64,000 bases of DNA from Gammaproteobacteria bacterium (lineage in GTDB: Bacteria > Pseudomonadota > Gammaproteobacteria > Eutrophobiales > Eutrophobiaceae), in assembly GCA_963422205.2 (NCBI GenBank), contig CAXMWX010000003.1, positions 29,623 through 93,622 on the forward strand, in the 5' to 3' direction. The translations under genes and the position numbers were made by a program. Positions within the stretch are counted from its first letter, which is position 1; each line of letters starts with the position of its first letter. Shown here piece after piece: positions 1-24,327 of the stretch. Below the pieces are notes generated by a model. It did not search any database. It was not told the origin of the DNA and saw only the letters and a program-made list of their open reading frames with translations.

Positions 1-1
1 G

Positions 2-6022: not shown

Positions 6023-6061
6023 GAAAATCGGTGATAGCGGCGATAAATCACAACAGCAAAG

Positions 6062-6910: not shown

Positions 6911-7225
6911 CGGCCAGGTTGACCAGATGCAGGCATAACCGCCCTGTTCGGCCCTTGGCAGCCGTCTTGCCGAGGATGATGATTTGCCAGGCCGGTTGTC
7001 TTAAAAACATGACATCAACTGCCCCGCACCATTTAACAGGCGTGCCATTGATCTGCTTTTAAGCTACTGATATTTATATAAAAATTTATCTTATCGCCAG
7101 GCAATGACAGCGGGCGTATATCCGAGGTGCAGTTATTGAATGCGAAATTCTCTCGCAAAAACGCTACTATGCGGCATATCGTTGATATTGCCCTGCTGGT
7201 GCAGGCGGTTAAAATACTTAACAAG

Positions 7226-9031
7226 ATGATGAGAAAATCAGCCCCCATATACCGTGCTCTGCCGGTGCTCGCCCCGGTTCTTGCCTTGACCTTGGGCTTG
7301 ACTGCCTGTACCACCTTGCCCCCCGTTGATAAGCAGGCCGAGCCAGCCGCTGCCCCCGCCATGCCTGAACAGACAGCCGCCCCACAGGAAGCGAGAGAAA
7401 TTGAAGCGGCAAAAGCTGTCCAGATTGCCCCCGTCAGACCGAAGATAGAACTCAGCGAGGCACTGCTGTATGAATTGCTATTAGCTGAATTTGCCGGCCA
7501 TAACGGTGAGCTGGCTACGGCGGCTGAAACGTACCTGTCGCTGGCACAAAGTATCCAGGACCACAAGCTGGCCGAGCGCGCCACCCGCATTGCGGTCTAT
7601 GCCAGAGAAGATCAGGCGGCGGCAGAGGCCGCAACGCTATGGGCTGATCTTGACCCGCTCAACCCGGATCCTCATCAGGTGCTGGCGGTGATGGAACTGC
7701 GCCAGGGCAATATGGAAAAAACAGTCATGCACTTGCAGAGCATACTGGATTACTCGCATGGTGAGTTGGATCAGAAATTATGGATGATCGCCAACATGCT
7801 TGGCCGAGAGCGGGATGCAGAGCTGGTGCTGGATGTCATGGAAGAGTTGGTCGCCACGCATCACAGCTCAGCAGATGCCTTGTATGCTTTTGCCCATGTT
7901 GCTGCCCGTCTGGGCGATCTTGAAAGGTCAAGGCAGCTGTTCGCTGAAACGCTGGTGCTGGCTCCGGGGAACGATAATGCGGCCTTGAGCTATATCTCCG
8001 TGCTGCAAAAACTGGGCGAGGTGCAACCGGCATTGCAATGGCTTGAGCAAAGACTGGCAAACGAAGCGAGGGATAATTTCAATCTGCGTATGGCTTATGC
8101 CAGGCTGCTTGCCGAGACCAGACGCTATGATGATGCCCGCCAGCAATTTGAGTTGTTAGCCGTGCAATCGCCGGCCAATAATGAAGTGCTGTATGCCCTG
8201 GGCCTGCTGTATTTGCAATCCAACCGGCTGGATGATGCCCGGGTTTATTTTGAGCGGCTGACTGAAAAGAGCGCACAAACTGACAATGCTAACTATTATC
8301 TGGGGCGCATCAGCGAGGAGGAAAAAAATTATCCGGCGGCAAGTGGCTGGTATGAAGGCGTGCATAAAGGTGAAAACTATTTTGATGCACGAATCAGGCT
8401 GGCCTTGTTGCAGGCAAAGCTGGGCGATGTTGAAAAAGCCCGACAGGCGTTGCGTTTGATAACGACCGCCAATGAGCAGCAGATGGTTATCTTGGTGCAG
8501 GCTGAGGCTGAATTGCTGCTTGAGGAGAAGCGTTATCATGAGGCGCTGGAGGTGTATAACCGGGCCTTAACCGATAACGACAATACGGATCTGCTGTATG
8601 CCCGGGCGATGGTCGCTGAGAAGCTGGACCGGCTGGATATCGTTGAGGCCGATTTACGCCGAATCTTGGCACAGGAGCCGGATCATGCCAGTGCCTTGAA
8701 TGCGCTGGGCTATACGCTGGCAGACAGAACGGCACGCTATGACGAAGCCTATGGCCTGATCAAGCAGGCGCTGGCGCTTAATCCGGCTGATTTTTATATC
8801 CTCGACAGCATGGGCTGGGTGCTGTATCGGCTGGGCCGACTGGATGAGGCCATCACGTACTTAAAACAGGCGATGGCCTTGCGCCAAGACCCGGAAATTG
8901 CCGCCCACTTGGGCGAGGTGTTGTGGGTTAAAGGCGACAAGGAGGCCGCCCGGGCAGTGTGGGAAAGTGCCTTGAAGCTGACGCCGGACGATGCTGTGTT
9001 GCTGGATGTCATCAAGCGGTTTCAAAATTAA
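7226..9031 (+). CDS. Tetratricopeptide-repeat lipoprotein
   Basis: Signal peptide with lipobox (LALTLGLTAC) after the internal ATG at 7226, then many TPR-like helical repeats. It lies upstream of lolB as in Pseudomonas. Confidence 0.8.
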   Translation: MMRKSAPIYRALPVLAPVLALTLGLTACTTLPPVDKQAEPAAAPAMPEQTAAPQEAREIEAAKAVQIAPVRPKIELSEALLYELLLAEFAGHNGELATAAETYLSLAQSIQDHKLAERATRIAVYAREDQAAAEAATLWADLDPLNPDPHQVLAVMELRQGNMEKTVMHLQSILDYSHGELDQKLWMIANMLGRERDAELVLDVMEELVATHHSSADALYAFAHVAARLGDLERSRQLFAETLVLAPGNDNAALSYISVLQKLGEVQPALQWLEQRLANEARDNFNLRMAYARLLAETRRYDDARQQFELLAVQSPANNEVLYALGLLYLQSNRLDDARVYFERLTEKSAQTDNANYYLGRISEEEKNYPAASGWYEGVHKGENYFDARIRLALLQAKLGDVEKARQALRLITTANEQQMVILVQAEAELLLEEKRYHEALEVYNRALTDNDNTDLLYARAMVAEKLDRLDIVEADLRRILAQEPDHASALNALGYTLADRTARYDEAYGLIKQALALNPADFYILDSMGWVLYRLGRLDEAITYLKQAMALRQDPEIAAHLGEVLWVKGDKEAARAVWESALKLTPDDAVLLDVIKRFQN

Positions 9032-9106
9032 CGCTACCCAGGCCGCCGCCCTGATGCCTTCGCTGGCCGCTGCCAAGCAGTGAAATAATCTCACCCGCCT
9101 CGCCGC

Positions 9107-9730
9107 TTGCATACCGTGCCTGTCTATCTCCTGCTGGTTTTATCAGGCGCTCTGCTGCTGTCTGCCTGTGCCGATTTGCCCTTGGTGAAACAGCAAGAGA
9201 CCGCCAGCACGGAGGACTGGCGGGCAAAACAGGTACGCCTGCTGGCATTGCAGGACTGGGACTTGACCGGTCGTATGGGCTTGAAGCTGGCGGGCATCTA
9301 TGGGCGGGGCTTCAGCGCCACGTTAAAATGGACGCAGCAGCAGCAGGACTACCGCGTGTTGTTGATAGCCCCCTTCGGCCGAGGCACAGCCATGCTGTAC
9401 ACCAACGATAACGGCGTGACCCTGCATACCCATGATAATCAACAGCTAAGTGCCGCCTCGCCGGAAGAGTTATTACAACACCACTTTGGCTGGACGCTGC
9501 CGGTTAAGGGCTTAGCTTACTGGATCAGGGGGATCCCGCAGCCGGGAATCCCGGTGCATGAGTTGCTGCTGGATGGGCAGCAGCGACTTAAACGCCTGCA
9601 ACAATCCGGCTGGCAGATCCGCTATGGGCAGTATGGGCAGGCAGGCCAGTATGAATTGCCCACCCGGCTGCACCTTGACCATGATGAGATCAGCGTAAGG
9701 CTGGCGGTAACACAATGGCTGTTAGAGTAA
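9107..9730 (+). CDS. lolB: Outer-membrane lipoprotein LolB
   Basis: Lipobox LLLSAC and about 200 aa, directly upstream of and overlapping ispE. The start is TTG at 9107 or GTG at 9116. Confidence 0.85.
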   Translation: MHTVPVYLLLVLSGALLLSACADLPLVKQQETASTEDWRAKQVRLLALQDWDLTGRMGLKLAGIYGRGFSATLKWTQQQQDYRVLLIAPFGRGTAMLYTNDNGVTLHTHDNQQLSAASPEELLQHHFGWTLPVKGLAYWIRGIPQPGIPVHELLLDGQQRLKRLQQSGWQIRYGQYGQAGQYELPTRLHLDHDEISVRLAVTQWLLE

Positions 9731-10602
9731 TCGAAGATTACTGGCCGGCACCGGCGAAGATCAATTTATTCCTGCATATCACCGGCCAGCGCGAAGATGG
9801 CTATCACTGCCTGCAAACTGTGTTTCAATTTCTCAAGCAGCATGACCGACTGTATTTCTCGCCGCGCAAGGATGGCCGGCTGACCAGGCAGGCGAACTAC
9901 TCGCCGGTTGATGAGCAGCAGGACCTGGTGATAAGAGCGGCCAGGGCCTTGCAGCAACACAGCACCTGCGGGCAGGGCGCCGATATCAGGATCGAGAAAT
10001 CATTGCCCGTGGGCGGCGGGCTGGGCGGTGGCAGCTCCAATGCCGCCACCACCTTGCATGCCTTGAATGCCCTCTGGGGCCTGGGCTTGTCGGTTGATAA
10101 GCTGGCCGGGATTGGCCTGTCTTTAGGGGCGGATGTGCCGGTATTCGTGCGGGGGCGTGCTGCCTGGGCGGAGGGCGTGGGTGAGATTTTGCGCCCGATT
10201 GCGCCGCCTGAGCGGTATTATGTGATCATCTGCCCCAACTGCCATGTGATGACAGCACAGGTCTTTGCCGATCCTGATTTGACACGTAACACACCGCCAA
10301 TCACAATATGCGACTTTCTCTCAGGCAAAGGTCATAATGACTGCGAGCCGGTTGTGCGCCGTGCCTATGCACAAGTAGACCAGGCCATGAACTGGCTGGC
10401 GCGGCGGGCCGAGGCCAGGCTCACCGGCACCGGGGCCTGTGTCTTTGCCGGTTTTAACAGCCAGCACAAGGCCGAGGAGGTACTCACCGATTTGCCGGAG
10501 AAATGGGAGGGATTTGTCACCCGGGGGCTGAATACCTCGCCTTTGCTGGAAAAGGCAGCAGGATGCCAGCACAAGACAGAGCAGATTGACGATGGGGTAT
10601 AG
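9715..10602 (+). CDS. ispE: 4-diphosphocytidyl-2-C-methyl-D-erythritol kinase
   Basis: WPAPAKINLFLHITGQREDGYH and the GHMP kinase motif PVGGGLGGGSSNAA. The 3' end overlaps the tRNA by about 10 nt. Confidence 0.95.
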   Translation: MAVRVIEDYWPAPAKINLFLHITGQREDGYHCLQTVFQFLKQHDRLYFSPRKDGRLTRQANYSPVDEQQDLVIRAARALQQHSTCGQGADIRIEKSLPVGGGLGGGSSNAATTLHALNALWGLGLSVDKLAGIGLSLGADVPVFVRGRAAWAEGVGEILRPIAPPERYYVIICPNCHVMTAQVFADPDLTRNTPPITICDFLSGKGHNDCEPVVRRAYAQVDQAMNWLARRAEARLTGTGACVFAGFNSQHKAEEVLTDLPEKWEGFVTRGLNTSPLLEKAAGCQHKTEQIDDGV

Positions 10603-10668
10603 CCAAGCTGGTAAGGCACAGGGTTTTGATCCCTGCATTCCCAGGTTCGAGTCCTGGTACCCCAGCCA
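10593..10668 (+). tRNA. tRNA-Gln (anticodon UUG)
   Basis: Hand-folded cloverleaf: acceptor TGGGGTA/TACCCCA, anticodon stem CAGGG/CCCTG with loop TTTTGAT, T-arm CCAGG-TTCGAGT-CCTGG, and an encoded CCA. Confidence 0.93.
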
Positions 10669-10693
10669 TTTAATCAGCAAGCTGAGTTAAGCC

Positions 10694-11647
10694 ATGTCAC
10701 TAGCCAATCTCATGCTGTTCAGCGGCAGCGCCAACCGGCATCTGGCAGGACAGATTGCCAGCTATTTGAACCTGCCCGCCGGCAAGATCAATCTGGGGCG
10801 TTTCAGCGATGGCGAGGTGATGGTGGAGATCGCTGAGAATGTCCGGGGCCGGGATGCCTATATCCTGCAATCCCTGTGTGCCCCGACGGATGCACATTTG
10901 ATCGAATTGCTGGTGATCGCCGATGCCTTGAAACGGGCATCAGCAGCCTGTATCACCGCGGTGATCCCCTATATGGGCTATGCCCGCCAGGACCGCCGGC
11001 CGCGCTCCGCCCGGGTGCCTATCACCGCCAAGGTGGTGGCGAACATGATTGGCTCGATAGGCATTAATCGGGTGCTGACCGTGGATTTACATGCCGATCA
11101 AATCCAGGGCTTTTTTGAGATGCCGCTGGATAACGTCTATGCCTCTCCGGTGTTGCTGGGCGATATCTGGAAACATAAATATGCCAACCAGATTGTGGTC
11201 TCGCCCGATGTAGGCGGGGTGGTACGGGCACGGGCGATTGCGAAACGGCTGGATGATACGGATCTCGCCATTATTGATAAACGTCGGCCCAATCCGAATG
11301 AATCGGAAGTGGTAAATATCATTGGCGATATCAGCGGCAGAACCTGTGTCATTGTGGATGATCTTGTCGACACGGCGGGCACGCTTTGCAATGCGGCGGC
11401 AGCGCTCAAGGAATACGGGGCAGAGAAAGTGGTCGCTTATTGCACGCATCCGGTGTTGTCGGGTAAGGCGATTGCTAACATCAGGCAGTCAGAACTGGAC
11501 GAGTTGGTGGTCACCGATACCATTCCCCTGCAAAGCGATGCGGCCGAATGCGGCCAGGTGAGGCAGCTTAGTGTGGCAGCGATGCTGGCTGAGAGTATCC
11601 GGCGCATTTCCGAAGGGGAATCGTTAAGCTCAATGTTCGTTGATTGA
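10694..11647 (+). CDS. prs: Ribose-phosphate pyrophosphokinase
   Basis: [13 protein letters not shown]...GRFSDGE...[11 protein letters not shown]...[14 protein letters not shown] motifs. Confidence 0.97.
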
Positions 11648-11711
11648 AGGCTGGTCAGTTGCCTTGCGATTATCCCACAATCACCGGGGCTGGCTGAACG
11701 GCGCCCTACGT

Positions 11712-11740
11712 CCTTGTCTGCTCGCAGGCAAGGGATTTTT
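11712..11740 (+). terminator. Putative rho-independent terminator after prs
   Basis: CCTTGTCTG-ctcg-CAGGCAAGG forms a 9-bp stem with one G-U pair and is followed by GATTTTT. Confidence 0.5.
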
Positions 11741-11763
11741 AACGACAAAACAGGAGTGGTTTC

Positions 11764-12426
11764 ATGCAGCAATTTGAATTAAGCGCCGAGCGGCGTTCAG
11801 AGACCGGCAAAGGGGCAAGCCGCCGCTTGCGCCGGGCCGGTAAACTACCCGGGGTCATCTATGGGGCCGGCAAAGGCGCACAGTCTCTCACGCTGGATCA
11901 TAATGCGATCGCCCACCAGCTGGAAAACGAAGCATTTTATTCCCATATCCTGACCATTAACGTGGGCGATGGCCATGAAAAAGTGGTGCTGAAAGACTTG
12001 CAACGCCACCCCTATAAACCCAGCCTGCTGCACATTGATTTCCAGCGCATTGATGAGAAGGAAAAACTCACCCTGCGCGTACCGCTGCATTTTATCAATG
12101 AAGATCAATGTATCGGCGTGAAGCAAAGCGGCGGGGTGATCAGCCATATCATGACAGAGCTGGAAGTGAATTGTCTGCCAAAGGATTTGCCGGAATATAT
12201 TGACGTTGATCTGCTGCAAACCGATGTGGGCGAGAGCATTCATCTGGCCGACCTGATACTGCCAGAGGGCGTGACAATCCATGCCTTGACACATGGCGGC
12301 GATGCTTCCCTGCCCGTTGTTGCCGTCAATCTGCCACGGGTGGTGGAGGAGGCGGCTGCCCCGGCCGCAATCGATGAGGGTGAGGCGGCGGCAGATGCAG
12401 CGGCTGATACCGGCACAAAATCATAG
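11764..12426 (+). CDS. rplY: 50S ribosomal protein L25 / general stress protein Ctc
   Basis: RRLRRAGKLPGVIYG N-terminus, long Ctc-type form with an acidic Ala-rich tail. Confidence 0.95.
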   Translation: MQQFELSAERRSETGKGASRRLRRAGKLPGVIYGAGKGAQSLTLDHNAIAHQLENEAFYSHILTINVGDGHEKVVLKDLQRHPYKPSLLHIDFQRIDEKEKLTLRVPLHFINEDQCIGVKQSGGVISHIMTELEVNCLPKDLPEYIDVDLLQTDVGESIHLADLILPEGVTIHALTHGGDASLPVVAVNLPRVVEEAAAPAAIDEGEAAADAAADTGTKS

Positions 12427-12492
12427 TCCAGGGATCATACTCTAAGGTGTTTAACAGCTGTTGCACTTGATTTAAATTGCAGCGCCGGGCAC

Positions 12493-13083
12493 GTGCCATC
12501 CAGGATCACATTAATCGCCGGTCTCGGTAACCCGGGTCTTGAGTATGCCAACACCCGGCATAATGCTGGCTTTTGGCTGGCTGACCGGCTTGTGCATCGC
12601 TTTCATGCCTGTTTCTCTATGGAAAAAAAATTATTCAGCGAGCTTGCCCGAATACAGACGGACGACCATGATTTACGGGTGATCAAACCACAAACATTCA
12701 TGAATGAGAGCGGGCGGGCGGTAGCGGCAGCAGCAGATTATTATGCGATAAACAGCGATGAGATCCTTATCGTCCATGATGAGATTGATCTGCCCGCAGG
12801 CATCATCAAGCTCAAACACGGCGGGGGTCACGGCGGCCATAATGGTCTTCGAAGTATCAGCCAGCATCTGCCTGATTGTGATTACTGCCGCCTGCGTATC
12901 GGTGTCAGTCATCCGGGCAGCAAACAGGACGTGACCTCACATGTGCTGGGGCGCCCGACAGCGCAGGATAAAAAACGGATCGACTCGGCCATTCAGCGCG
13001 GGCTTGACTGCATGGATAGGATCTTGGCCGGCGACATCAGCCAGGCCATGTGCCTGCTGCACGCTGAGAAGCCCGCCGGGTAG
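12493..13083 (+). CDS. pth: Peptidyl-tRNA hydrolase
   Basis: LIAGLGNPGLEYANTRHNAGFW signature. GTG start. Confidence 0.95.
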   Translation: MPSRITLIAGLGNPGLEYANTRHNAGFWLADRLVHRFHACFSMEKKLFSELARIQTDDHDLRVIKPQTFMNESGRAVAAAADYYAINSDEILIVHDEIDLPAGIIKLKHGGGHGGHNGLRSISQHLPDCDYCRLRIGVSHPGSKQDVTSHVLGRPTAQDKKRIDSAIQRGLDCMDRILAGDISQAMCLLHAEKPAG

Positions 13084-13130
13084 ACCTAAGGTACGCGCCT
13101 GCCTGTACACCAATGGACAGATAGAGCGTC

Positions 13131-14222
13131 ATGGGATTTAAGTGCGGCATCGTCGGCCTGCCCAATGTGGGTAAATCCACCTTGTTCAATGCCTTGACCA
13201 ATTCCGGGATCAGCGCTGAAAATTATCCTTTTTGTACGATTGATCCGAATGTGGGCATTGTGCCGGTGCCTGATCCTCGGCTGCAACACATTGCTGATCT
13301 GGTAAACCCCGGGCAGGTCATCGCCGCACAGATGGAGTTTGTTGATATTGCCGGCCTGGTCAAGGGAGCATCGACGGGCGAGGGGCTGGGCAATCAGTTT
13401 CTGGCGCATATCCGTGAAACACAGGCCATAGCCCAGGTGGTGCGCTGTTTTACCGATGAGGATATTGTGCATGTCAGTGGCCGGGTGGATCCGCTGGCAG
13501 ATGTGGAGGTAGTCAATACGGAATTATGCCTGGCCGATCAGCAGAGCCTGGAAAAAGCACAGGCGAAGGCGATAAAACTTGCCAGGGGCGGCAGTAAAGC
13601 AGCCCGATCAAAAGCAGCAATGCTGGAGAAGGCGCTGCTGCATATTGATACCGGCAGCCCGATCCGGGCGCTGCGCTTGCCGCCGGATGAGTTAAGCCTG
13701 TTACATGATTTACAGCTATTAACAGCAAAGCCCACCCTCTACATCGCCAATGTGGATGAGGCAGAGGTTGAAGATAACCCATGGCTGACGGCATTGCAGG
13801 ACTATGCCAGGGCCGAGGGCGCCCAGGTGGTGCGTGTCTGTGCGGCGATAGAGGCGGAAATCGCCGAGTTGGAGGAGGCGGATAAAACCGATTTTCTGGC
13901 AGAGTTAGGCGTGACTGAGCCGGGTTTACACCGCATCATCCGGGCGGGGTATGACTTGCTGGGGCTACAGACTTTTTTTACCGCCGGGCCAAAGGAAGTG
14001 CGCGCCTGGACGATCAAACAAGGCGCCCGTGCGCCACAGGCGGCCAGTGCCATACACACGGATTTTGAAAAAGGGTTTATCCGCGCAGAGGTGATCGCCT
14101 TTGCTGATTACCTGAAGTTCAAGGGCGAGCAAGGCGCCAGGGATGCCGGTCGATGGCGGCTGGAAGGCAAAGACTACCCGGTGGCCGATGGCGATGTGAT
14201 GTTATTCCGTTTTAATGTATGA
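13131..14222 (+). CDS. ychF: Ribosome-binding ATPase YchF
   Basis: [19 protein letters not shown]-loop, 363 aa, with the C-terminal TGS-like tail [11 protein letters not shown]. Confidence 0.96.
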
Positions 14223-14303
14223 GCGTACAGACCGGCCGGGTTGCAGATTAATGCGGCCATAAGGCCGTGAGTTGATTGATCTGTAATACGATTCGCCCTA
14301 AAC

Positions 14304-14355
14304 AGATCACCTGAGTAGATCACCTGGGCAAATCACCAGAGCAGACCAGATGCAA
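14304..14355 (+). repeat. Four tandem 13-bp units (AGATCACCTGAGT / AGATCACCTGGGC / AAATCACCAGAGC / AGACCAGATGCAA) running into the aldolase start codon
   Basis: Read directly. Units 1-2 match at 11/13 and unit 3 at 10/13; unit 4 is degenerate and contains the ATG at 14350. Confidence 0.7.
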
Positions 14356-14994
14356 ATAAAAACAGACATTATTCGATTCGCCCAGTCGCTGCATGACAGC
14401 GGGCTGGGGGTTGGCAAGGCTGGCAATGTCAGCGGTCGAGGCGGGGCGGGTTATTTTATTACGCCGACTGGCATCGCCTATGAATTACTGGATGTGAACA
14501 CGCTGGTGGAAATGGACTTCCAGGGGCAGCGCATCAACAGTGATTTGCTGCCTTCCAGTGAATGGCGGCTGCATCAGGACATATACCGAGCACGATCCGA
14601 GGTGCATGGTATCGTACACACACATTCACCTTATGCCACCGCCGTTGCCTGCACCGGCCAGGACATCCCCGCCTTTCATTACATGGTAGCGATAGCCGGC
14701 GGGAATTCCATCCGCTGTGCCGATTATGCCACGTTCGGCACCCAGACCTTGTCCGATCATGCCATGCAGGCATTGCAGGACCGGCGCGCCTGCCTGCTTG
14801 CCAACCACGGCGTGATTGCTGTCGGCCCGGATGTGGCAACGGCTTTTTATCTCGCCCGGCAAGTGGAAGAGCTGGCAAAACAGTATGTGCTCAGCCGCCA
14901 AATCGGCGAGCCGGTGTTGTTGGATGAGCAGGAGATGGCGCGTAACCTGGAGAAGTTCGCCAGCTACGGCAGGCAGAGTGCCGATGGCAGTTGA
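14350..14994 (+). CDS. Class II aldolase/adducin-family protein
   Basis: Metal-binding His pattern (HGIVHTHSPYATA ... LLANHGVIAVG) typical of the fuculose-phosphate aldolase / MTRu-1-P dehydratase fold. Confidence 0.8.
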   Translation: MQIKTDIIRFAQSLHDSGLGVGKAGNVSGRGGAGYFITPTGIAYELLDVNTLVEMDFQGQRINSDLLPSSEWRLHQDIYRARSEVHGIVHTHSPYATAVACTGQDIPAFHYMVAIAGGNSIRCADYATFGTQTLSDHAMQALQDRRACLLANHGVIAVGPDVATAFYLARQVEELAKQYVLSRQIGEPVLLDEQEMARNLEKFASYGRQSADGS

Positions 14995-15736
14995 GTTTGG
15001 ACTGTGGCAGGCGGTGACCTTATTTTTAGTCGGGATCGCTGCTGGCTTTGTTAATGTGACGGCGGCCGGGGGGTCGATGTTGAGCGTGCCGGTCATGGTG
15101 TTTATGGGCGTACCCGGGCCGGTTGCCAACGGCACCAATCGTATCGCTATCCTGGCACAGAACATCACCGCCGTTTTTACCTTCGCCCGCCAGGGGTATG
15201 CTGATTTCAGGCTGAGCGCGCATCTGGCGCTGGCGGCCTTGCCGGGTGCTATCATCGGCGCCATGATCGGCGCCCATCTGGAGGGGGTATGGTTTAATCG
15301 CCTGCTTGCCATGATCATGATCCTTATGATGCTGTTGATGTCGATGAGGCCAACAGACCGGCAAAGCAGGCAGCGGCCAGTACGCAAACGGCTGGCGTAT
15401 TTTTGTATGTTCCTTGCCGGCCTGTACGGCGGCTTCATACAAATCGGCGTGGGGTTTATCATCATGCCGGCATTGCAGCGCTGCCTGGTGCTGGATCTGG
15501 TGCGTGTGAATATGCACAAGACCTTCATCATAGGTACATACAGCATGGCCGCATTGCTGGTCTTTCACTCCCAGGTGCAGTTGCTGTGGGCCTTGGGCTT
15601 ATCTCTGGCGGCGGGTAATTCGGTTGGCGCCTGGCTGAGCGCACATACACAGATAAAAAAAGGCGAGGGTTATATCCGCATCATCTTAAACAGCGTGTTG
15701 GTCGCATTTATCATCAAGCTGTTGTTTTTCAGCTAG
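14984..15736 (+). CDS. TauE/SafE-family sulfite/anion exporter membrane protein
   Basis: Internal ATG at 14984 gives MAVEFGLWQAVTLFLVGIAAGFVNVTAAGGSML..., a polytopic membrane protein of about 250 aa. The longer 306-aa ORF start overlaps the aldolase gene. Confidence 0.75.
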   Translation: MAVEFGLWQAVTLFLVGIAAGFVNVTAAGGSMLSVPVMVFMGVPGPVANGTNRIAILAQNITAVFTFARQGYADFRLSAHLALAALPGAIIGAMIGAHLEGVWFNRLLAMIMILMMLLMSMRPTDRQSRQRPVRKRLAYFCMFLAGLYGGFIQIGVGFIIMPALQRCLVLDLVRVNMHKTFIIGTYSMAALLVFHSQVQLLWALGLSLAAGNSVGAWLSAHTQIKKGEGYIRIILNSVLVAFIIKLLFFS

Positions 15737-15867
15737 GCGATGCTAGGGGGACAGGCACAGGCAGTAAAGCAGATGATCTGACATGCAGCCATCGGCGGCA
15801 CATTATCCCGCCCTTCATGATGTATCTCATCGGCGGCATTGAATATGACGATCTGGCGAGCAGCAAC

Positions 15868-16740
15868 TCAATACCTTTTGGGTACAAACGTCTGGGTGTG
15901 CATGGCGGCGCGCTTATACCCCTTGCCCTCTTTTAATGGCGGAATCTTCGGCACCACAGGCCTTAAATCTTTATACGGGATCATGCTCAGCAGATGTGCA
16001 ATGCAGTTCAGCCGGGCGCGCTTTTTATCATCCGAGGGCACCACATACCAGGGCGCCTGCGGGATGTCGGTGTGGAAGAACATTTCATCTTTGCACTTGG
16101 AATAATCCTGCCAGCGCGAGCGGGATTCCATGTCCATCGGGCTGAGTTTCCAGAATTTATGCCGCTCCAGCGCACGCGCCTTGAAGCGCCGCTCCTGCTC
16201 TATGTTACTGACTGAGAACCAGTACTTGATCAGGATGATGCCAGAGCGTATCAGGCTGCATTCAAACTCCGGACAAAAGCGCAGAAACTCCTGGCTCTCC
16301 GCATCAGTGCAAAACCCCATCACCTTCTCCACCCCGGCGCGGTTATACCAGCTTCTGTCAAACAACACGATCTCGCCGGCCGCCGGCAGATGAGTGATAT
16401 AGCGCTGAAAATACCACTGCGTTTTTTCTTTTTCGGTCGGGGCCGGCAGCGCCACGACCGTACATATTCGGGGGCTCATGTGTTGCACGATACGCTTGAT
16501 AACGCCGCCTTTGCCGGCGGCATCCCGGCCCTCAAACACGACTACGATTCTGAGCCCTTTCTCTTTCACCCATTCCTGCAACTTGACCAGCTCAACCTGC
16601 AACCGAAACATCTCTTTCTCATAGAACTTCTTCGGCAGCTGCTTCTCCTGCTCGCCCCGAAGCCTGGGGTCATTCTCATGATAGGCATCCAGTATATCGG
16701 GCATGCCATCGTTTGATTCGGTGGTTTTTTTAGTCATCAT
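15868..16740 (-). CDS. ppk2: Polyphosphate kinase 2
   Basis: FEGRDAAGKGGVIKRI Walker A and the PPK2 lid region (RWYFQRY-like WYFQRYITHLP). Confidence 0.9.
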   Translation of the reverse strand: MMTKKTTESNDGMPDILDAYHENDPRLRGEQEKQLPKKFYEKEMFRLQVELVKLQEWVKEKGLRIVVVFEGRDAAGKGGVIKRIVQHMSPRICTVVALPAPTEKEKTQWYFQRYITHLPAAGEIVLFDRSWYNRAGVEKVMGFCTDAESQEFLRFCPEFECSLIRSGIILIKYWFSVSNIEQERRFKARALERHKFWKLSPMDMESRSRWQDYSKCKDEMFFHTDIPQAPWYVVPSDDKKRARLNCIAHLLSMIPYKDLRPVVPKIPPLKEGKGYKRAAMHTQTFVPKRY

Positions 16741-16885
16741 ACGTCTCTTTTCTATGTCGTTGTGTTGCGATCTTCAACTGTGGCGCCCACATAGTATAGC
16801 CTAATGCCAATATATATCTCATGCCGGTGTCCAGGCGGGTTAAATGTCCATGCGGCAACATGAAGGCGATTCTCGCCGTTGTCCT

Positions 16886-16907
16886 TTAACTCTGGCTTAA
16901 CTCTGGC
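16886..16907. repeat. Perfect 11-bp tandem duplication TTAACTCTGGC x2 spanning the trpC stop codon
   Basis: Read directly. The second copy contains the trpC TAA (16897-16899, minus strand). Confidence 0.8.
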
Positions 16908-17706
16908 CGAGTAGCTGCTGTAAGCACCGGCCCGGATCATCCGCCCGCATCAGTACCTCGCCGATGAGAAATACATGCACACCATGTTTTCGCATCATCT
17001 CAATGTCCGTCCGGCGGTGAATACCGCTCTCCGTGACCACGGTGCGATCAGGATAGACATCGATTAGCAAGTCCAGCGTCCTCTGCAAAGAGGTTTCAAA
17101 TGTATGCAGGTTGCGATTATTGATGCCGATCAGGGGCGAGCGCAGCATCATCGCCCGTTCCAGCTCTTCACGATCATGCACCTCCAGCAACACATCCAGC
17201 CCCAGCGCCTCGGCCAGGCCGTGCAACTCCTGCATCTGCCCATCGGTCAGCGCGGCAACGATCAGCAGGATAGCATCGGCACCCATCACCCGGGCCTCAT
17301 ACACCTGATAGGGATCGATGATAAAATCCTTGCGTAATACGGGCAGCCCCGCCGCTTGCTTGGCTTGGGTTAAATACGCATCGCTGCCCTGGAAAAATTT
17401 CTCATCCGTCAAGACAGACAGGCAGACAGCCCCGCCCTTATGATAAGAGTTGGCGATGGCAACAGGGTCGAAATTCTCCCTGATGATCCCCCTGCTGGGA
17501 GAGGCTTTTTTAAGCTCGGCTATCACGGCGACATGCCCCTGCCGCACCTGGCCGCTGATCGCCCGATAAAAGCCCAAGGTCGGCTCGGCATCCGCCGACT
17601 GCTGTTTTATATCTTGCAAGCTGATGTTTAACTGCCTGGCGGCGATCACTTCTTTTTTGCAGACCAGGATATCCTGCAACATGTCATGGCTTGCAGATGT
17701 GGGCAT
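16897..17706 (-). CDS. trpC: Indole-3-glycerol phosphate synthase
   Basis: [12 protein letters not shown]...[11 protein letters not shown]...INNRNL motifs. Confidence 0.96.
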
Positions 17707-17722
17707 GATGATTCCAGTTCGA

Positions 17723-18760
17723 TTATTCTAAAGCCAGGGTATTTGACAGTGTCACCAGCTGCTGCAACCTGGCCTTGGCCGCACCTGAGGCAAGTACCTC
17801 ATCGGCCAGCACCACACCGGCATTAAGGTCATCACACAGCCCGGCCAGATAGATCGCCGCCGCGGCGTTCAACACGACGATGTCGCGGCAGGGGCCGGGA
17901 TCGTTATTCAGCACAGCCTGCATCACGCTATGACTGTGCTCGGCACCATCAACGATCAGAGCCTGCCTGATTATCTTCCTGTCCGTCAGGCCAAAGCCAA
18001 ACCGGGCGGGATCGAGCGCATACTCGCTGATGGTATCATCTTTTAATTCAGCCACCCTGGTCGTCGCACACACACTGATCTCATCCATGCCATCGGCAGC
18101 GCATACCACCATGGCATGACAACTGCCCAGTTGTTGTAATACTTCGGCCAGCGGGCGCACCAGTTCCTCACTGTAGACGCCAACGAGTTGACGCTTGACC
18201 CGCGCCGGATTGGTCAGCGGGCCGAGTACATTAAAGATCGTGCGTATGGCCAACTCGGCGCGCGGGCCGGCGGCATGGCGCATCGCCGGATGATGCTTGG
18301 GCGCGAAGATGAAGCCGATGCCCAACTCCACAATGCAACGGGCGATGCCCTCCGGCGGCAGGTCTATGTTGACGCCGGCCTGTTGCAATACATCGGCGCT
18401 GCCGGAGCGGCTGGAGACAGCGCGGTTGTTATGCTTGGCGATGCGACCACCGGCTGCGGCAATGACAAACGCTGCTGTGGTGGAGATATTAAACGACTGG
18501 CTGCCATCACCGCCGGTGCCAACGATGTCCACCAGATTCGTATCGGCCACGCTGACCGGGGTGGCAAAGTCACGCATGACAGCAGCAGCAGCAGCAATCT
18601 CCGTCACTGTCTCGCCCTTCATCCGCAAGGCGATCAGGAAACCAGCAATCTGCGCCTCGGTCGCCTCGCCCGACATGATCGCCCGCATAACGGCCTGCAT
18701 CTGCCCCTGTTGCAGATCATAACCATCGACAAGCAGCGCTATGGCCTGTTGTATGTTCAT
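17723..18760 (-). CDS. trpD: Anthranilate phosphoribosyltransferase
   Basis: [23 protein letters not shown] and [17 protein letters not shown] motifs. Confidence 0.96.
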
Positions 18761-20439
18761 GCCAGGGTCGGTTGGGGTGAGCGAAGATTATCAGCAGGCA
18801 TTTTCCCGGCCCGATACGTTCCATCTATTGCCTCCAACCCAAGATACGCCAGCAGGGACGGGTTTGACGGCTGTTTGATATTGTTAAGGTAATCCAGATA
18901 AATCGGTATGCACTCCAGATGGGAGCGCAGTATCTTGTGTGTATTGAATAATTTTTTATGCAGCCAGTTGATCACATCCAGATTAAAGTATTCCACCAGC
19001 TTGCGGGTTTTCACCAAACGCTGCTCATCAATAATGAGCATGTTGGCACTGTTTAAGATAAACCGCTGTTGCTCATCACAGAAGAACACAAGATCAGAAG
19101 AGATGAAGCGGTAGATGATTTTGCAGGGTGCCTGATACAGCGTGAGCGGTGCCACCTGTTGGTATAGGGAAAAATCTGGCTGGAGGTAATGCGTGGGCTT
19201 TTTGATTCTGCCTTTGCCAATATCCGCCCCCTTAAACACGGGGACAAAGCCTGCTTGCGGATGCTCGACAAGATGTTTTTTATTGTTGCCGGTCACAATG
19301 CCCAGTCCCCATCTGGCCTTGTCTTTAAGCGTGGTGTGTGGTTGTTTGAGCATGAGCGCCAGCGCATCGGCTTCCGTTTCCCTGATGTCGAAATTGATAA
19401 TCGAGAAGGGGTTGTTTGCAAAAGTTGTTTGTCTGTGGGCGGTTGATTTTTCCCCTGAAAGACAATTTATTTTGTTCCCGAAGGCGGCCACCTTTTTGGA
19501 AAAAACAATAGCACTCGCCTTGGTCACGAGGCCCTCAAATGCTTTGCCAAAGTCAATCAACCATGCGATGTTCTGGGCTAATACGATGTTGCGAATCTCG
19601 TGAAATGACTTCACGTTAAAAAATGATTCGGGCAACAACAGCCCTATCTTTCCGTTTTCCTGGACAGATTTTAACATGGCCATCGTAAATAACGCACAAG
19701 AATCAAACGACTGCTGCAAGCCAAACCTTTTGGACAAGACCTGCCTTTGATTCTTAAAATATTTTTTACCCCAGGGCGGGTTGGTGATAAGCACATCGTA
19801 TCTTGCAGCATCGGTCAGGGACAGGAAATCAGCAACCCGCAAATTTTCCCCCTTGTACCCGCTGCGATCAAACAGGCGCCGCCTAGCGATTTCCAGTGCT
19901 ACCGTATCCACCTCATAGCCGGTGAGATGGCGAGGCGACACACCGGCTTCCAGGGCAGCGATTAAAAAATTACCGCTGCCGCAACACGGATCACAAAATC
20001 GGGTTTTTTGATTTAAATCCGCCTTTGCAATCAAGTCCCGACATAATGCCATGGGCGTGTAGTAGACGCCTTGCTTGTTTTTATACGTATTTGAAAGCAC
20101 ATCCTCATACGCCTGTGCCAGTCGGTCGCCATGGTTTTTATCCGCCGGATTGTGCCAGACCTTGTTAAAAATTTCCGCCGCCAGCGGTGCATGATCGTGC
20201 ATTTGAGCATGCTGTTTATTGGCCCTGGCGATGAGCTTCTCATGACCGACAATGTCCTGACAGAATTTCTCGAATGATTGTTTTTTCAGGTAGCCTTTGT
20301 ATTCCGATTTCTCCAGATACCCGGCTTTTATCCAGTTGACTATCGAGGCATGAGAGACGTTGAGCAATGCAGTCGCCTCGGTATAAGAAAGCAGATCAGC
20401 ATGGGCGATGGGATGCTTAAAAAAAAATTTCTGCTGCAT
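18757..20439 (-). CDS. Gamma-class N6-adenine DNA methyltransferase (TaqI/Eco57I-like) with an N-terminal helix-turn-helix
   Basis: Motif I FCDPCCGSGNFL and motif IV VLITNPPWG. The N-terminal LLSYTEATALLNVSHASIVNWIKAGYL is excisionase/MerR-type HTH-like. Likely start is the ATG at 20439 (MQQKFFFK); the ORF stays open up to 20622. Its TGA overlaps the trpD ATG (ATGA). Confidence 0.8.
   Translation of the reverse strand: MQQKFFFKHPIAHADLLSYTEATALLNVSHASIVNWIKAGYLEKSEYKGYLKKQSFEKFCQDIVGHEKLIARANKQHAQMHDHAPLAAEIFNKVWHNPADKNHGDRLAQAYEDVLSNTYKNKQGVYYTPMALCRDLIAKADLNQKTRFCDPCCGSGNFLIAALEAGVSPRHLTGYEVDTVALEIARRRLFDRSGYKGENLRVADFLSLTDAARYDVLITNPPWGKKYFKNQRQVLSKRFGLQQSFDSCALFTMAMLKSVQENGKIGLLLPESFFNVKSFHEIRNIVLAQNIAWLIDFGKAFEGLVTKASAIVFSKKVAAFGNKINCLSGEKSTAHRQTTFANNPFSIINFDIRETEADALALMLKQPHTTLKDKARWGLGIVTGNNKKHLVEHPQAGFVPVFKGADIGKGRIKKPTHYLQPDFSLYQQVAPLTLYQAPCKIIYRFISSDLVFFCDEQQRFILNSANMLIIDEQRLVKTRKLVEYFNLDVINWLHKKLFNTHKILRSHLECIPIYLDYLNNIKQPSNPSLLAYLGLEAIDGTYRAGKMPADNLRSPQPTLA
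20419..20427. repeat. A9/T9 homopolymer in codons 5-7 (FFF) of the gamma-class methyltransferase
   Basis: Counted directly (ggatgctt + 9 a + ttt). Confidence 0.9.
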
Positions 20440-20706
20440 TGATGTCTTCGGGTAAGGGGCTGGATAAACCGCCCCGGCTTGGTTGACAAGACGGCAGGAT
20501 ATTATCACACCAATACCGTATTTCAATGGATTAGCGTGTTGCACAGCAGCCTCCCGACGCCTTGCCTGCCATGTCGATAAAGTCTCGCCAGTGAGTGATT
20601 GAGGATTGGGGTCGATCGCCATTTACAGGCATGACTGCGGTCGCCGGGGCTAACTCTACCATGCAGGTTTTCAAACAAAACAGGGGTGCTGGAATTTTTT
20701 ATACTA

Positions 20707-21153
20707 CTAATGCGGTTGTGTAAACTCAAAGAGGGATTGGAGTAATCTCGCATTATATTTCGATATTTTATCAATCCTGGTTTGTTTTCTGGTATAAAGA
20801 GCCTCTTTGTCATTGGTGGTTTTCACTCTTTCCCGATTTTCAAAATCTGAAAAAACAGCTTCATTTGGATTAATACTTAAAACTACATTTCTGTTGCCAC
20901 GACGAGATATGTCTTTGTGCTTGTACTTGTGAATATAAATCAAATTTCGATAGTCATCGATCATTTTTGCTTCCTCTTTGTTGCGGGCTGATGAGATGGG
21001 AACGATGTGATGAAGTTCAAACTTGTCTCTTTTTTTCCACTTCATGAAAGCTAAAATATTTGCGTTTTGGAATAGCACTTCTTCTTGTCGATCTATGGAA
21101 AAATCCTGTGTTTCCAACATTGAGTCGGAAAAATCGGTTATTATCAACTTCAA
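20707..21153 (-). CDS. HNH nuclease domain ORF, the C-terminal part of a split restriction endonuclease
   Basis: FELHHIVPIS...DDYRNLIYIHKYKH fits the HNH pattern (HH...N...H). It overlaps the upstream 313-aa ORF by 137 nt in the +1 frame. Confidence 0.7.
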   Translation of the reverse strand: MKLIITDFSDSMLETQDFSIDRQEEVLFQNANILAFMKWKKRDKFELHHIVPISSARNKEEAKMIDDYRNLIYIHKYKHKDISRRGNRNVVLSINPNEAVFSDFENRERVKTTNDKEALYTRKQTRIDKISKYNARLLQSLFEFTQPH

Positions 21154-21958
21154 AATAGACAGTCGTTTTCAGCAAACCCATAATCTGCTGCGCCTGATTC
21201 TTCCAATTATGAATATCACGTTTAGCGGTTTTGTTTCCCTCAAAATTTTGAGGATTGGCATACGCCTTTACCAATTTGATCACCTTTCTTTGCTCATATT
21301 TTCTCAAGCTACGATATGAATCAAGGAGCTTGATTTTGTCTATACCCTCATTATCATCTGAGAAAATAAACATGAATTCATAGATGCTTATCTTATCATT
21401 CATATAATCGCTAAGATGTAACATGGTCGCCAGTTCAGAAATCCTGCTGCCAAATAGTCTATCTATGGCGTCAGTAAATTTTTTGTACCTGTCAATCAAA
21501 ATATCTGCTTCGATAAATTCAACTGCTCTTATCGTCAATCTACCATGAAAAATTGTTTTTCCCGTTTCATTTATTTTAATTTTTTCTCTTGCCAAAAACC
21601 CCATTTTTTCCAAATCAGGAAAGAAATTCTTTTTTATGGAATTAATCGTACCACGCCCCAATCCAGAATTTATCCTGTCGACGATTGCCTGGTAATGTCT
21701 AGCGTACTCCGGCAACTCATCGTCTTTTGCGTAGTCGCCTGGAGGAATTGTGAAATAATCTGTTCCCACAACATCATATATATTCTGTAAAATCAACCCA
21801 ATGTCATTTAAATTATATCTGTTATGTTGAGAAATATGCCAACCACGATAATTATCATCAAGCAGCCGATTTATTATGTATGTTAAGAAAAGATTATTCT
21901 CTTTTATCGATAAAATCTCATCCAGAATTTGCTGTGTTTCTTTAAGGGCGATATTCAT
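21017..21958 (-). CDS. Putative restriction endonuclease N-terminal (DNA-recognition) part, no recognisable catalytic motif
   Basis: 313-aa AT-rich ORF with a 4-nt overlap to the upstream methyltransferase stop. It ends 11 nt after an A7 tract, and a 1-nt shorter tract would join it to the HNH ORF. Confidence 0.6.
   Translation of the reverse strand: MNIALKETQQILDEILSIKENNLFLTYIINRLLDDNYRGWHISQHNRYNLNDIGLILQNIYDVVGTDYFTIPPGDYAKDDELPEYARHYQAIVDRINSGLGRGTINSIKKNFFPDLEKMGFLAREKIKINETGKTIFHGRLTIRAVEFIEADILIDRYKKFTDAIDRLFGSRISELATMLHLSDYMNDKISIYEFMFIFSDDNEGIDKIKLLDSYRSLRKYEQRKVIKLVKAYANPQNFEGNKTAKRDIHNWKNQAQQIMGLLKTTVYFEVDNNRFFRLNVGNTGFFHRSTRRSAIPKRKYFSFHEVEKKRQV
21030..21036. repeat. T7 (A7 on the coding strand) homopolymer at the frame break of the nuclease gene
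   Basis: Coding strand: GTG GAA AAA AAG AGA CAA GTT TGA in the upstream frame, against ATG AAG TGG AAA AAA AGA GAC AAG TTT GAA CTT CAT CAC in the HNH frame. Confidence 0.9.
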
Positions 21959-22725
21959 CTGACTTCCCTTAATTTTTTTCTGGCTATTGCTACATAGTCT
22001 TTTTCTATATCACAACACAGAAAATTCCTTTTTAGTTTTTTTGCGGCAACTGCTGTTGTACCAACGCCAACAAAACAATCCAAAATCAGGTCATTTTTAT
22101 TTGAACTTGCCTTGATGATTCTCCTTATCAACTCTAATGGCTTTGGCGTAGCATGTTGCATCTTTTGAACTTTACCATTGACTTTATTTTTATGTCTCTC
22201 ACTCGTAATATGCCAGACTTCGCCGCAAAGTTTTCCCTTTGGATTAGGAAACCAACGTTTGCCGTTTTTAATTATACCTTTCCTTTTTGCATGCTCAATT
22301 CTCTTCGTTGACTCATAAGGAATACGTACAGCATCATAGTTGAACGTGTGGTTTTTTCCCTTAGTGAAGAAAATTATCGTTTCCTGTCCATTGCTAAAAC
22401 GCTTTCTGGCACCGCTCAATCCATCTCTTTTATCCCAGGTTATCCAGTTTTGAAAATACATACCCTTGCTGACAAGATATTGCAGTATGAATGCCGAATT
22501 ATATGGTGTATTAAAAATATACAGGCTGCCATTGCGTTTTAGTTTTGGAATAAGAGCATCTATCCAGGAATAGGTAAAATCAAAAAATGCTTTTCTTGAT
22601 TTGAAGGTATCCCAATATGCTTTTCGCATATTGTAGGGCGGGTCAATAATAGCCAGATCAATAATGTCATCATCAACCTGTTGCAAAAATTTAAAGCAAT
22701 CCATTTGATATATTTTATTTAGCAT
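21955..22725 (-). CDS. Beta-class DNA methyltransferase (N4/N6 family, DPPY type, probably m6A)
   Basis: Motif IV LAIIDPPYN lies N-terminal and motif I LDCFVGVGTT lies C-terminal, which is the beta-class order. Confidence 0.88.
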   Translation of the reverse strand: MLNKIYQMDCFKFLQQVDDDIIDLAIIDPPYNMRKAYWDTFKSRKAFFDFTYSWIDALIPKLKRNGSLYIFNTPYNSAFILQYLVSKGMYFQNWITWDKRDGLSGARKRFSNGQETIIFFTKGKNHTFNYDAVRIPYESTKRIEHAKRKGIIKNGKRWFPNPKGKLCGEVWHITSERHKNKVNGKVQKMQHATPKPLELIRRIIKASSNKNDLILDCFVGVGTTAVAAKKLKRNFLCCDIEKDYVAIARKKLREVR

Positions 22726-23612
22726 AATTTTTTTTGATGCGATTCTTGCTCAAGGAGCATTTTAGCTAACCCTAACTTTTTATCGATTATTCTCCGGTAA
22801 TTTTTCATTACTTCATAACCAATAAAATGACGTCCCTCTTCTTTTGCCACTTTTAAGGTTGTGCCGCTACCTGCAAAAGGATCAAGCACAACATCATCAA
22901 TATAAGTAAATAACCTTACGCAACGATAAACAATCTCTTCTGGCATAATGGCACTATGATTACCAAAGGCAATATCATTTTTCCCCGGAACAGGTATTCG
23001 CCAAATCTGTTTTGTGAATTTCACCCATTCCTCTTCGGTTAGTTTACTTTGTTCTCTGATTTTCCTAGGCTTATTATTTACTGTTTTACCGTCTTTCACA
23101 TAGACAGTTATAAATTCACTGGTATTTTGTGCGTAAAAATTTCTTGGATAAGGATAACTTCCAAACATCAGTTTTTTACTTGGATTAGTTCGATCCCAAA
23201 TATAAACATCATATAAAAACATATCCGTTTTTTCCTGATATAAAATCGAATGCTGTATGTCAGCATTAAGATCAAAAATGTGTCTATTATAGTGCGTTGA
23301 GTAATCCGCCTTCTTCATTGGCACAAGTGGAGTATTGATTATCAGTTTTCCATTTGGTTTTAATACCCGCTCACACTCTTGCCAAACTTTCAATAGCCCT
23401 TTAATGAATAACTCATAATCATTTATATCGCCAAGCTGCTCTTTATGTTTTTTGTCATTACTGTTTTTTTGATAGCCATCCTTGGCATAATCTTTAATAT
23501 TAAAATAAGGCGGCGATGTAACGATCAAATGAACTGCCCTGTCTGGGACTTCACGCATATTTTGAGCGTTTTTATAAAACACTTTATTTAGAAAATCTTT
23601 ATTCTTATGCAC
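22719..23612 (-). CDS. Beta-class DNA methyltransferase (N4/N6 family, SPPY type, possibly m4C)
   Basis: Motif IV LIVTSPPYF lies N-terminal and motif I LDPFAGSGTT lies C-terminal. GTG start with GAGG 8 nt upstream. Confidence 0.88.
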   Translation of the reverse strand: MHKNKDFLNKVFYKNAQNMREVPDRAVHLIVTSPPYFNIKDYAKDGYQKNSNDKKHKEQLGDINDYELFIKGLLKVWQECERVLKPNGKLIINTPLVPMKKADYSTHYNRHIFDLNADIQHSILYQEKTDMFLYDVYIWDRTNPSKKLMFGSYPYPRNFYAQNTSEFITVYVKDGKTVNNKPRKIREQSKLTEEEWVKFTKQIWRIPVPGKNDIAFGNHSAIMPEEIVYRCVRLFTYIDDVVLDPFAGSGTTLKVAKEEGRHFIGYEVMKNYRRIIDKKLGLAKMLLEQESHQKKLC

Positions 23613-23739
23613 AGATCGCCTCGGGTATTGCTTTATTTAAGTTGCAAGCTGCTGATATTTGATTCCACAACGCTTGCCGACTTGCCTGTTTATCGCACAT
23701 GGGTACTTAAATGATAACCTGAACGATCTCATGCCTTGA

Positions 23740-24327
23740 TTATTCCTGCCCCAGCGAGATAAAATTCTTTAACAGATCATGGCCGCAGGTAGTCAGTATG
23801 GATTCTGGATGAAACTGCACCCCATAGACAGGATAGTCTTTATGTCGAACTCCCATGATCTCATCCATGCTGCCATCAGCATGCTGCGTCCAGGCGGTGA
23901 CTTCAAGGCAGCCGGGCAAGGTATCTTTGGCTACCACCAGGGAATGGTAGCGGGTGGCGATAAGAGGCACTTCCAACCCGCTGAACACATCGCTGTCAGC
24001 ATGAAAGATGGCGGAGGTCTTGCCGTGCATGACCTGTTGGGCATGTATGATGTTGCCGCCAAACACCTGGCCGATACTCTGATGCCCCAGACAAACGCCT
24101 AAGATCGGCACCTGCCCCTTGAATGCGTCAATCACTGCCATGGAAATGCCGGCCTTATCCGGCGTACACGGGCCGGGCGAGATAACCAGACGTTGCGGTG
24201 CCAGGGCGGCGATCTCATCAATACTGATAACATCATTGCGGTATACCTTGACATCCTGCCCCAGCTCGCCGAGGTACTGCACCAGGTTGTAGGTAAACGA
24301 ATCGTAGTTGTCTATCATCAGCAACAT
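23740..24327 (-). CDS. trpG: Anthranilate synthase component II (glutamine amidotransferase)
   Basis: [18 protein letters not shown]... with the GVCLGHQ catalytic Cys and the HPES triad. Confidence 0.96.

Follow-up and report, generated by a model that had tools for sequence, protein, structure and literature searches.

R.HpyAII, the product of HP1366 of Helicobacter pylori 26695, is a type IIS HNH nuclease (GAAGA, 8/7). Recognition of GAAGA and activity in strain 26695 have been reported (PMC2588503, PMC4917963), and mutagenesis identified H328, H329, N350, and H359 as its HNH site (PMC7494987). The published system includes one methylase forming N6-methyladenine (m6A) and one forming N4-methylcytosine (m4C) (PMC7494987), designated M1.HpyAII and M2.HpyAII, respectively. 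The prototype GAAGA (8/7) type IIS enzyme is MboII of Moraxella bovis, which belongs to a two-methylase system of the same chemistry (PMC7494987), and HP1366 has been annotated as MboIIR (PMC4209511). From sequence analysis, MboII has been classed as a type IIS enzyme of the HNH superfamily (PMC2441816, PMC4081073), in conflict with a statement that it has, unlike HpyAII, a PD...(D/E)XK site (PMC7494987). Here we describe a relative of these nucleases from an uncultured gammaproteobacterium (GTDB family Eutrophobiaceae, assembly GCA_963422205.2), encoded within a stretch of 64,000 nucleotides of contig CAXMWX010000003.1 (positions 29,623 to 93,622, forward strand), referred to below as the window. 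The restriction (R) gene at window positions 20707-21958 is interrupted by a frame break at a run of seven A residues (A7) just ahead of its HNH motif, and the break probably reflects a real and recent inactivating mutation by an extra A.

The nuclease gene and its frame break

Examination of the window sequence and its open reading frames (ORFs) gave the following features of the R gene, with lengths in amino acids (aa).

20707..21958, minus strand: entire R gene of the HpyAII/MboII family (HNH, type IIS), its frame broken in the present sequence; A7 read as A6 gives 416 aa (from the sequence, the ORFs, and the reconstruction)
21017..21958, minus strand: upstream ORF, 313 aa, recognition domain and linker, ending ...EVEKKRQV*, 8 codons past the slip
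21030..21036, minus strand: A7 run (plus-strand T7), apparent site of the +1 A insertion; zero frame GAA AAA AAG AGA, presumed ancestral GAA AAA AGA (E K R)
20707..21029, minus strand: HNH-encoding part, position 2 of the R310 codon through the stop, +1 frame with respect to the upstream ORF
20917..21012, minus strand: HNH catalytic core, with H316 (21012-21010), H317 (21009-21007), N338 (20946-20944), and H347 (20919-20917)

A preliminary description of this locus, made from the sequence alone, had reported two overlapping ORFs and a T7 run at 21030-21036, and re-reading of the sequence reproduced all of its coordinates, sizes, and frames. The 313-aa ORF at 21958-21017 ends in ...YFSFHEVEKKRQV*. 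The second ORF, 21153-20707 on the minus strand, shares 137 nt with the first but is read in the +1 frame; its 148-aa translation includes FELHHIVP...NLIYIHKYKH. As had been stated, an HNH part starting independently from the internal ATG at 21045 would share 29 nt with the upstream ORF. The ATG of the R gene overlaps the stop codon of the upstream methylase gene (ATGA) and has a Shine-Dalgarno-like AAGGGA upstream of it. That methylase gene, carrying a DPPY motif, is translationally coupled to the R gene.

Deletion of one A from the A7 run in the reconstruction gave a continuous protein of 416 aa, and addition of two A residues gave one of 417 aa. Members of the family are single polypeptides of 405-430 aa holding both the recognition and the cleavage part. 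The window gene as sequenced fails to encode such a chain and does so only after one A is removed, and for this reason the window copy is a disrupted member of the HpyAII/MboII family. Beyond the frame break, the HNH-encoding part at 20707..21029 bears no additional lesion. The open stretch of 107 codons that follows the break holds all of the family-invariant residues (L315, H316, H317, D334, N338, Y341, H347, and N402), and chance can be taken as excluded as the source of this open stretch.

Homologues across the junction

A search with the fused protein returned 120 relatives, nearly all of 405-430 aa and covering 97-100% of the query, the best being 73% identical. This bears out the earlier proposal that removal of one A yields a single chain of about 416 aa in which a C-terminal HNH domain follows an N-terminal recognition part. 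At the DNA level, a scan of one genome per species gave 79 loci, many H. pylori strains among them, and in these the R gene was mostly readable in one frame. The A6 reconstruction fit a family alignment of 36 members (A1) without a gap. It aligned with the closest relatives at ...YFTFHSVEKRDKFELHH..., and at the join the window sequence YFSFHEVEKRDKFELHHIVP is aligned with YFTFHSVEKRDKFELHHIVP of the closest relative.

The nearest relatives read ...VEKRDKFELHH... across the join, gap-free. In the window, homology tracks the upstream frame to ...YFSFHEVEK and then the +1 frame from RDKFELHH, and because homology switches frame there, the break can be placed at the A run by more than the mere geometry of the two ORFs. 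The junction DNA is GTG GAA AAG CGG GAC AAG in locus L001 and GTT GAA AAG AGG GAT AAG in locus L005, compared with GTG GAA AAA A AGA GAC AAG in the window. Because the closest homologues read VEKRDKFELHH with GAA AAG CGG or GAA AAG AGG at the join, the window appears to hold an ancestral GAA AAA AGA into which one A has been inserted.

The break site lies in a lysine-rich linker that leads directly into the first strand of the catalytic motif. At this site, an in-frame A6 or A7 was found in 30 more distant loci, H. pylori included, and the 79 loci include no case of a break there. Because these distant relatives have such runs in frame at the same site, the A run can be put down to Lys codons in an AT-rich gene, not to a dedicated switch. 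Lineage-specific change at conserved positions was 0.078 after the break versus 0.099 before it, and the gene has therefore changed no faster after the break.

Disruption of the R gene by stops or frameshifts was found in 7 of the 79 loci. Frameshifted copies stood beside intact methylases in L012 (at about 6432-6437, with a junction that is not homopolymeric) and L084, and nonsense copies beside intact methylases in L008, L034, L074, L075, and L081, two of which are H. pylori strains. In L093 (4001-4879) a truncated R gene lacks the HNH part, and both methylases are kept. Loss of the R gene is common in the HpyAII/MboII family.

Assignment to the HpyAII/MboII family of HNH nucleases

The fused protein was 33% identical by BLASTP to the 423-aa hp60 protein of H. 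pylori, an HpyAII orthologue, over residues 5-408 (E 1e-61). The numbering of the hp60 protein was checked, and His328, His329, Asn350, and His359 stand at the published HpyAII positions. The corresponding H316, H317, N338, and H347 of the window protein are invariant in the 36 aligned members, with spacings of 21 and 9 as in H328/H329/N350/H359 of HpyAII. In NCBI, one H. pylori member of the family, P0435, bears the name 'Type-2 restriction enzyme MboII'. Judged by these sequence relationships, the gene is a member of the HpyAII/MboII-like family of HNH type IIS nucleases.

Pfam alone gave the HNH label below threshold (PF01844, E 0.011-0.035; PF14412, E 0.005-0.035), and the sub-threshold matches across the 36 members were to AHH in 17, HNH_2 in 10, and HNH in 8. 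When a family profile was compared with the sequences of the PDB, the HNH DNase of pyocin AP41 ranked first (E 0.075), its alignment falling exactly on this motif, ahead of HNH-Cas8f fusions; a single-sequence search of the PDB sequences returned weak and irrelevant matches only. The full-length AlphaFold model had a predicted local distance difference test (pLDDT) score of 88 and showed a strand, strand, helix (beta-beta-alpha) arrangement around the motif, as did the C-terminal domain modelled alone (pLDDT 92.6). Comparison of the C-terminal model with the PDB by Foldseek found nothing significant, the best E value being 0.73, with faint matches to the nuclease-like domains of autotaxin/NPP3. 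Since Pfam alone remained below threshold, the HNH label is drawn from the HpyAII relationship together with the profile-level support and the predicted structure.

For the N-terminal ~275 residues, the best Foldseek match was the recognition region of the type IIS nickase Nt.BspD6I (probability 1.0, E 0.05-0.3, TM-score 0.34-0.37), followed in the list by many winged-helix regulators. The Nt.BspD6I match to the predicted model agrees with a layout of recognition followed by cleavage. The preliminary description had likened this architecture to that of MnlI and Eco31I, which are listed as HNH enzymes of type S (PMC2441816). The general design holds, but the nearest characterized relatives are R.HpyAII and MboII instead. 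Neither the MnlI nor the Eco31I family was returned by any search, and the relatives recovered were the HpyAII/MboII group with its two beta-class exocyclic methylases. Because the R proteins are one-third identical, we infer no more of the target than that it would be GAAGA-like.

The methylase genes and the conserved cassette

Two methylase genes lie directly upstream of the R gene.

22719..23612, minus strand: beta-class methyltransferase, 297 aa, SPPY motif IV (PF01555, E 1e-47), m4C type by convention, intact; first gene of the cassette
21955..22725, minus strand: beta-class methyltransferase, 256 aa, DPPY motif IV (PF01555, E 3e-63), m6A type by convention, intact

The two adjacent methylases of the preliminary description are thus a DPPY and an SPPY gene of the PF01555 family; their m6A and m4C specificities were assigned from motif IV alone. 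Compared with the equivalently placed genes of about 80 loci, H. pylori included, the DPPY methylase shows 54-85% identity; for the SPPY methylase the range over about 80 loci is 56-86%. The order of SPPY methylase, DPPY methylase, and nuclease is kept in practically all of these ~80 loci, again with H. pylori included. The window accordingly has the two exocyclic beta-class methylases beside R that are a feature of the family, in line with the m6A and m4C pair published for HpyAII (PMC7494987).

Origin of the extra base

We consider it probable that the extra A arose as a genuine and recent mutation that inactivated the nuclease. In intact relatives, a single chain of ~415 aa has an N-terminal recognition domain of ~290 aa ahead of a predicted cleavage domain of the HNH (beta-beta-alpha-metal) type at the C-terminus. 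The three-gene type IIS restriction-modification (R-M) cassette of SPPY methylase, DPPY methylase, and HNH nuclease would have been gained horizontally, landing in the trp operon. An extra A gained just before the first HNH strand would then have changed GAA AAA AGA to GAA AAA A AGA. Because the added base shifts the frame and a stop follows eight codons later, the product of the A7 allele would be a 313-aa recognition fragment without the nuclease, made beside two intact methylases, and the outcome would be modification on and restriction off. Cleavage activity is presumably lost. The lesion is young, because the remainder of the gene is undamaged, and one-base slippage could revert it. Retained methylases with a lost nuclease are a common and ordinary pattern.

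Of the four readings that had been offered at the outset, namely an inactivated nuclease with intact methyltransferases, an ON/OFF switch by slippage, a +1 translational frameshift, and a homopolymer sequencing error, the first proved best and the last became its main rival, because frameshifting signals are absent and A7 is under the usual length of phase-variable tracts. If the extra A were an assembly or sequencing error, the true sequence would be A6 and the gene a plain, intact 416-aa nuclease. A one-base change in homopolymer length is a classic error type, the gene is otherwise flawless, with all invariant residues and no accelerated divergence, and the allele is without independent confirmation. 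However, 28 other long homopolymers in the window lie unbroken inside intact ORFs, among them several A8 runs and an A9 run (20419-20427), lengths at which errors are likelier than at A7, and homopolymer calls in the contig look reliable. The dense map of ~60 genes in the window holds no other split ORFs, the adjacent pairs tested having complete and distinct domains, and the family often has a disrupted R gene next to intact methylases. Because of these three observations a true mutation is favored, the extra A is presumably real, and an error appears unlikely. As a phase-variable switch operated by slipped-strand mispairing, the tract would be ON as A6 or A9 and OFF as A7. The break indeed falls exactly in a homopolymer and the rest of the gene is intact; HP1366 is among the candidate phase-variable genes of H. 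pylori (PMC4209511) and HpyAII has been termed phase-variable (PMC7494987); and the same genome holds a C16 tract before a glycosyltransferase gene, indicating that long tracts occur in it. We nonetheless regard a switch as improbable. The tract criterion used for H. pylori is a G/C run of at least 7 or an A/T run of at least 9, and A7 falls below this A9/T9 cut-off for candidate tracts (PMC4209511, methods). The run is interrupted in the closest relatives (GAA AAG CGG, GAA AAG AGG), the 30 relatives with in-frame A6 or A7 and the 79 loci include none broken there, and the other disruptions in the family lie elsewhere, with L012, the sole frameshift junction read, not homopolymeric.

Recoding, in which ribosomes slip by +1 or -2 on the Lys codons or RNA polymerase drops one A, would retain the A7 allele as a source of low-level full-length enzyme and is very improbable. 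Appreciable transcriptional slippage is known at runs of about 9 or more, and A7 is shorter. The tRNA-Lys is slip-prone on an A run; moving by +1 from AAA (21034-21032) to AAA (21033-21031), it would restore exactly the ancestral EKRDK, and a -2 slip would yield EKKRDK. Continued use would also fit with an HNH part free of damage. Yet the two-frame arrangement occurs in none of the intact HNH-bearing homologues examined, and signals supporting the proposed +1 translational frameshift were absent: the shift site is without a stop, slow, or rare codon (the next zero-frame codons being AAG AGA), the RNA beyond the site shows no more folding than shuffled sequence (z +0.44), and the heptamer A AAA AAG is in register for a -1 slip only, which leads to a dead-end, unrelated tail of 22 codons. 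The least credible of the alternatives is a two-subunit enzyme made of a 313-aa recognition subunit and an HNH subunit starting at ATG 21045 or TTG 21153. Stand-alone recognition-only proteins of ~285 aa do exist in the wider family in complete genomes, and some cassettes with such short forms hold an extra gene, such as that for a PLD-family nuclease in locus L043. These short forms, however, stop at the domain boundary and are not followed by an HNH ORF, the site lies within one chain in the HNH-bearing relatives examined, neither ATG 21045 nor TTG 21153 is preceded by a Shine-Dalgarno sequence, and one inserted base explains the junction exactly. The two-polypeptide model of the preliminary description was dropped because homologues are not consistently encoded as two overlapping genes, an arrangement not seen in the close family.

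Some results weigh against a true inactivating mutation as well. A second copy of the allele was not found in the protein collection or the JGI metagenomes. The complete lack of secondary damage is equally expected of an assembly error or of expression sustained by slippage, and with A7 revertible, the term 'pseudogene' may overstate the permanence of the lesion. An exact look-up of the 313-aa product gave no record, and the flanking proteins are singletons in 90% clusters. A scan of JGI metagenome DNA allowing A6-A9 at the tract found nothing, and a scan of the same metagenomes with a 20-mer of the HNH motif found five chance matches only, in unrelated GC-rich DNA.

An island in the trp operon

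The cassette has a guanine-plus-cytosine (GC) content of 33-37%, compared with about 56% for the host, and lies between trpG (23740-24327) and trpD (17723-18760), with all genes on the minus strand. In the nearest relative found, a gammaproteobacterial metagenome-assembled genome (MAG; locus L086) whose TrpD is 69% identical, trpG abuts trpD within the same rpe-trpE-trpG-trpD-trpC synteny. Because trpG directly adjoins trpD there, the cassette can be recognized as part of an insertion of ~5 kb and four genes at window positions 18761-23739. The low GC content relative to the host and the uninterrupted trpG-trpD junction of the relative together mark the cassette as apparently foreign and horizontally acquired. 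The fourth gene fills the rest of the island.

18757..20622, minus strand: gamma-class N6-adenine methyltransferase, 621 aa, with a TaqI-like specificity domain (PF02384, PF12950, PF07669), 48% GC

No counterpart of this gene follows R in L001, L005, or the other loci, and it is therefore outside the conserved cassette. The protein has a weak N-terminal helix-turn-helix, and the GC content of its gene is unlike that of both the host and the neighboring cassette. Its stop codon and the trpD start share 4 nt, an overlap resembling the trpG-trpD coupling of the relatives. A partner nuclease gene for this methylase was not visible.

Direct or inverted repeats flanking the island were limited to short families at chance level, and a scan of the island for promoters and terminators gave counts equal to the shuffled expectation. 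The island genes have the same orientation as the trp genes. With trpG and trpD separated by the island, expression of trpD and trpC must run through the foreign genes, and the cassette may be co-transcribed with the trp genes. A polar effect of the premature stop on trpD and trpC would be pure speculation.

In the host part of the window (1-18756 and 23740-64000), GAAGA occurred 96 times versus 76 expected (ratio 1.26); it is thus not depleted, a count uninformative on the target of the nuclease. In the same small sample, in which GAAGA is undepleted, GAGTC was found 26 times versus 47 expected from a Markov model, or about half.

The wider family

A profile search of 1.84 billion cluster representatives gave 338 members, the majority of full length. 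In about 18 representatives, of 270-307 aa, the chain stops at the same domain boundary and only the recognition part is present; some of them occur in complete Helicobacter genomes. Examples are P0297, P0303, P0311, P0321, P0322, and P0328, and the loci L094 (5001-5873) and L095 (5001-5858). In H. enhydrae a recognition-only gene follows the two methylases, between which lies a 226-aa gene of unknown kind, and in one H. pylori strain a 285-aa form stands between the methylases and a full-length HpyAII gene.

Other members combine the recognition part with different partners or lose the HNH domain. The AT-rich cassette of L043 (2977-8619), on a gammaproteobacterial MAG chromosome, has a gene for a 448-aa PLD-family nuclease between its two methylase genes, with PLDc_2 and RE_NgoFVII above the Pfam cut-offs, and its recognition part is without an HNH domain and reads in frame into argS. 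In P0085 (663 aa) AAA ATPase domains replace HNH, and in P0325 and P0329 (420 aa) a T5orf172-like C-terminus, a weak match related to GIY-YIG, does so. L079 has a 674-aa ORF that retains the ELHH motif at position 582.

Because the family is modular in this way, with the recognition part found alone or with other partners, there is a small chance by analogy that the 313-aa fragment of the window has a use of its own. More broadly, we give little credence to the idea that the break is something beyond simple decay, whether the A7 run is a low-rate reversible valve or the 313-aa product is itself useful, taking both variants together. In the valve variant, DNA or RNA slippage would leave a toxic nuclease nearly silent in a cassette that shares the transcription of the trp operon. 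As a useful fragment, the 313-aa product would resemble the natural stand-alone recognition proteins of ~285 aa, which end at the same boundary.

Elsewhere in the window, a C16 homopolymer at 6007-6022 lies ~40 nt upstream of the ATG of a plus-strand gene at 6062-6910, encoding a glycosyltransferase of family 25 (lipopolysaccharide/lipooligosaccharide biosynthesis; PF01755, E 3.7e-32). An upstream ATG at 6003 would be in frame with this gene only at C17 or C14. By its sequence the locus resembles a classic phase-variable surface-glycan locus, and it is a far better candidate for a switch than the A7 run.

Comparison with known systems

For annotation, the two ORFs at 20707-21958 are better described as one disrupted type IIS R gene beside two intact methylases than as two hypothetical proteins, and the locus adds one more case in which methylases were kept and the nuclease lost. 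The HpyAII/MboII family, known mainly from Helicobacter, is widely spread, with members in Gammaproteobacteria, the candidate phyla radiation, Bacteroidales, Clostridia, and Spirochaetes. Should the tract length prove to vary in the population, a short A run would act as a restriction switch outside host-adapted pathogens, a modest advance.

Compared with the recognition domain of the FokI/Nt.BspD6I type, built of several winged-helix subdomains, the N-terminal 275 residues of the reconstructed protein have their best structural match there. The match is weak, is unaccompanied by sequence similarity, and is to enzymes with PD-(D/E)XK cleavage instead of HNH. As in the phase-variable R-M genes of H. 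pylori and other host-adapted bacteria, a homopolymer decides whether full-length protein is made. The tracts of those genes are typically G/C runs of at least 7 or A/T runs of at least 9 that vary among cells or strains, whereas the A7 of the window is neither conserved in the close relatives nor the break point in other members.

The likeness to MboII, the GAAGA (8/7) prototype, is by annotation and literature. Relative to HpyAII, the window copy differs in being frame-broken, in its gammaproteobacterial host, and in its site in the trp operon, and the 80-bp flanking repeats reported for the H. pylori locus (PMC7494987) were not found at the island. The two systems also have features in common: the chains are of similar length (416 versus 423 aa) and homologous over their full length, the H-H...N...H spacing is the same, the window methylases are 54-63% identical to those of H. 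pylori, and the three genes stand in the same order.

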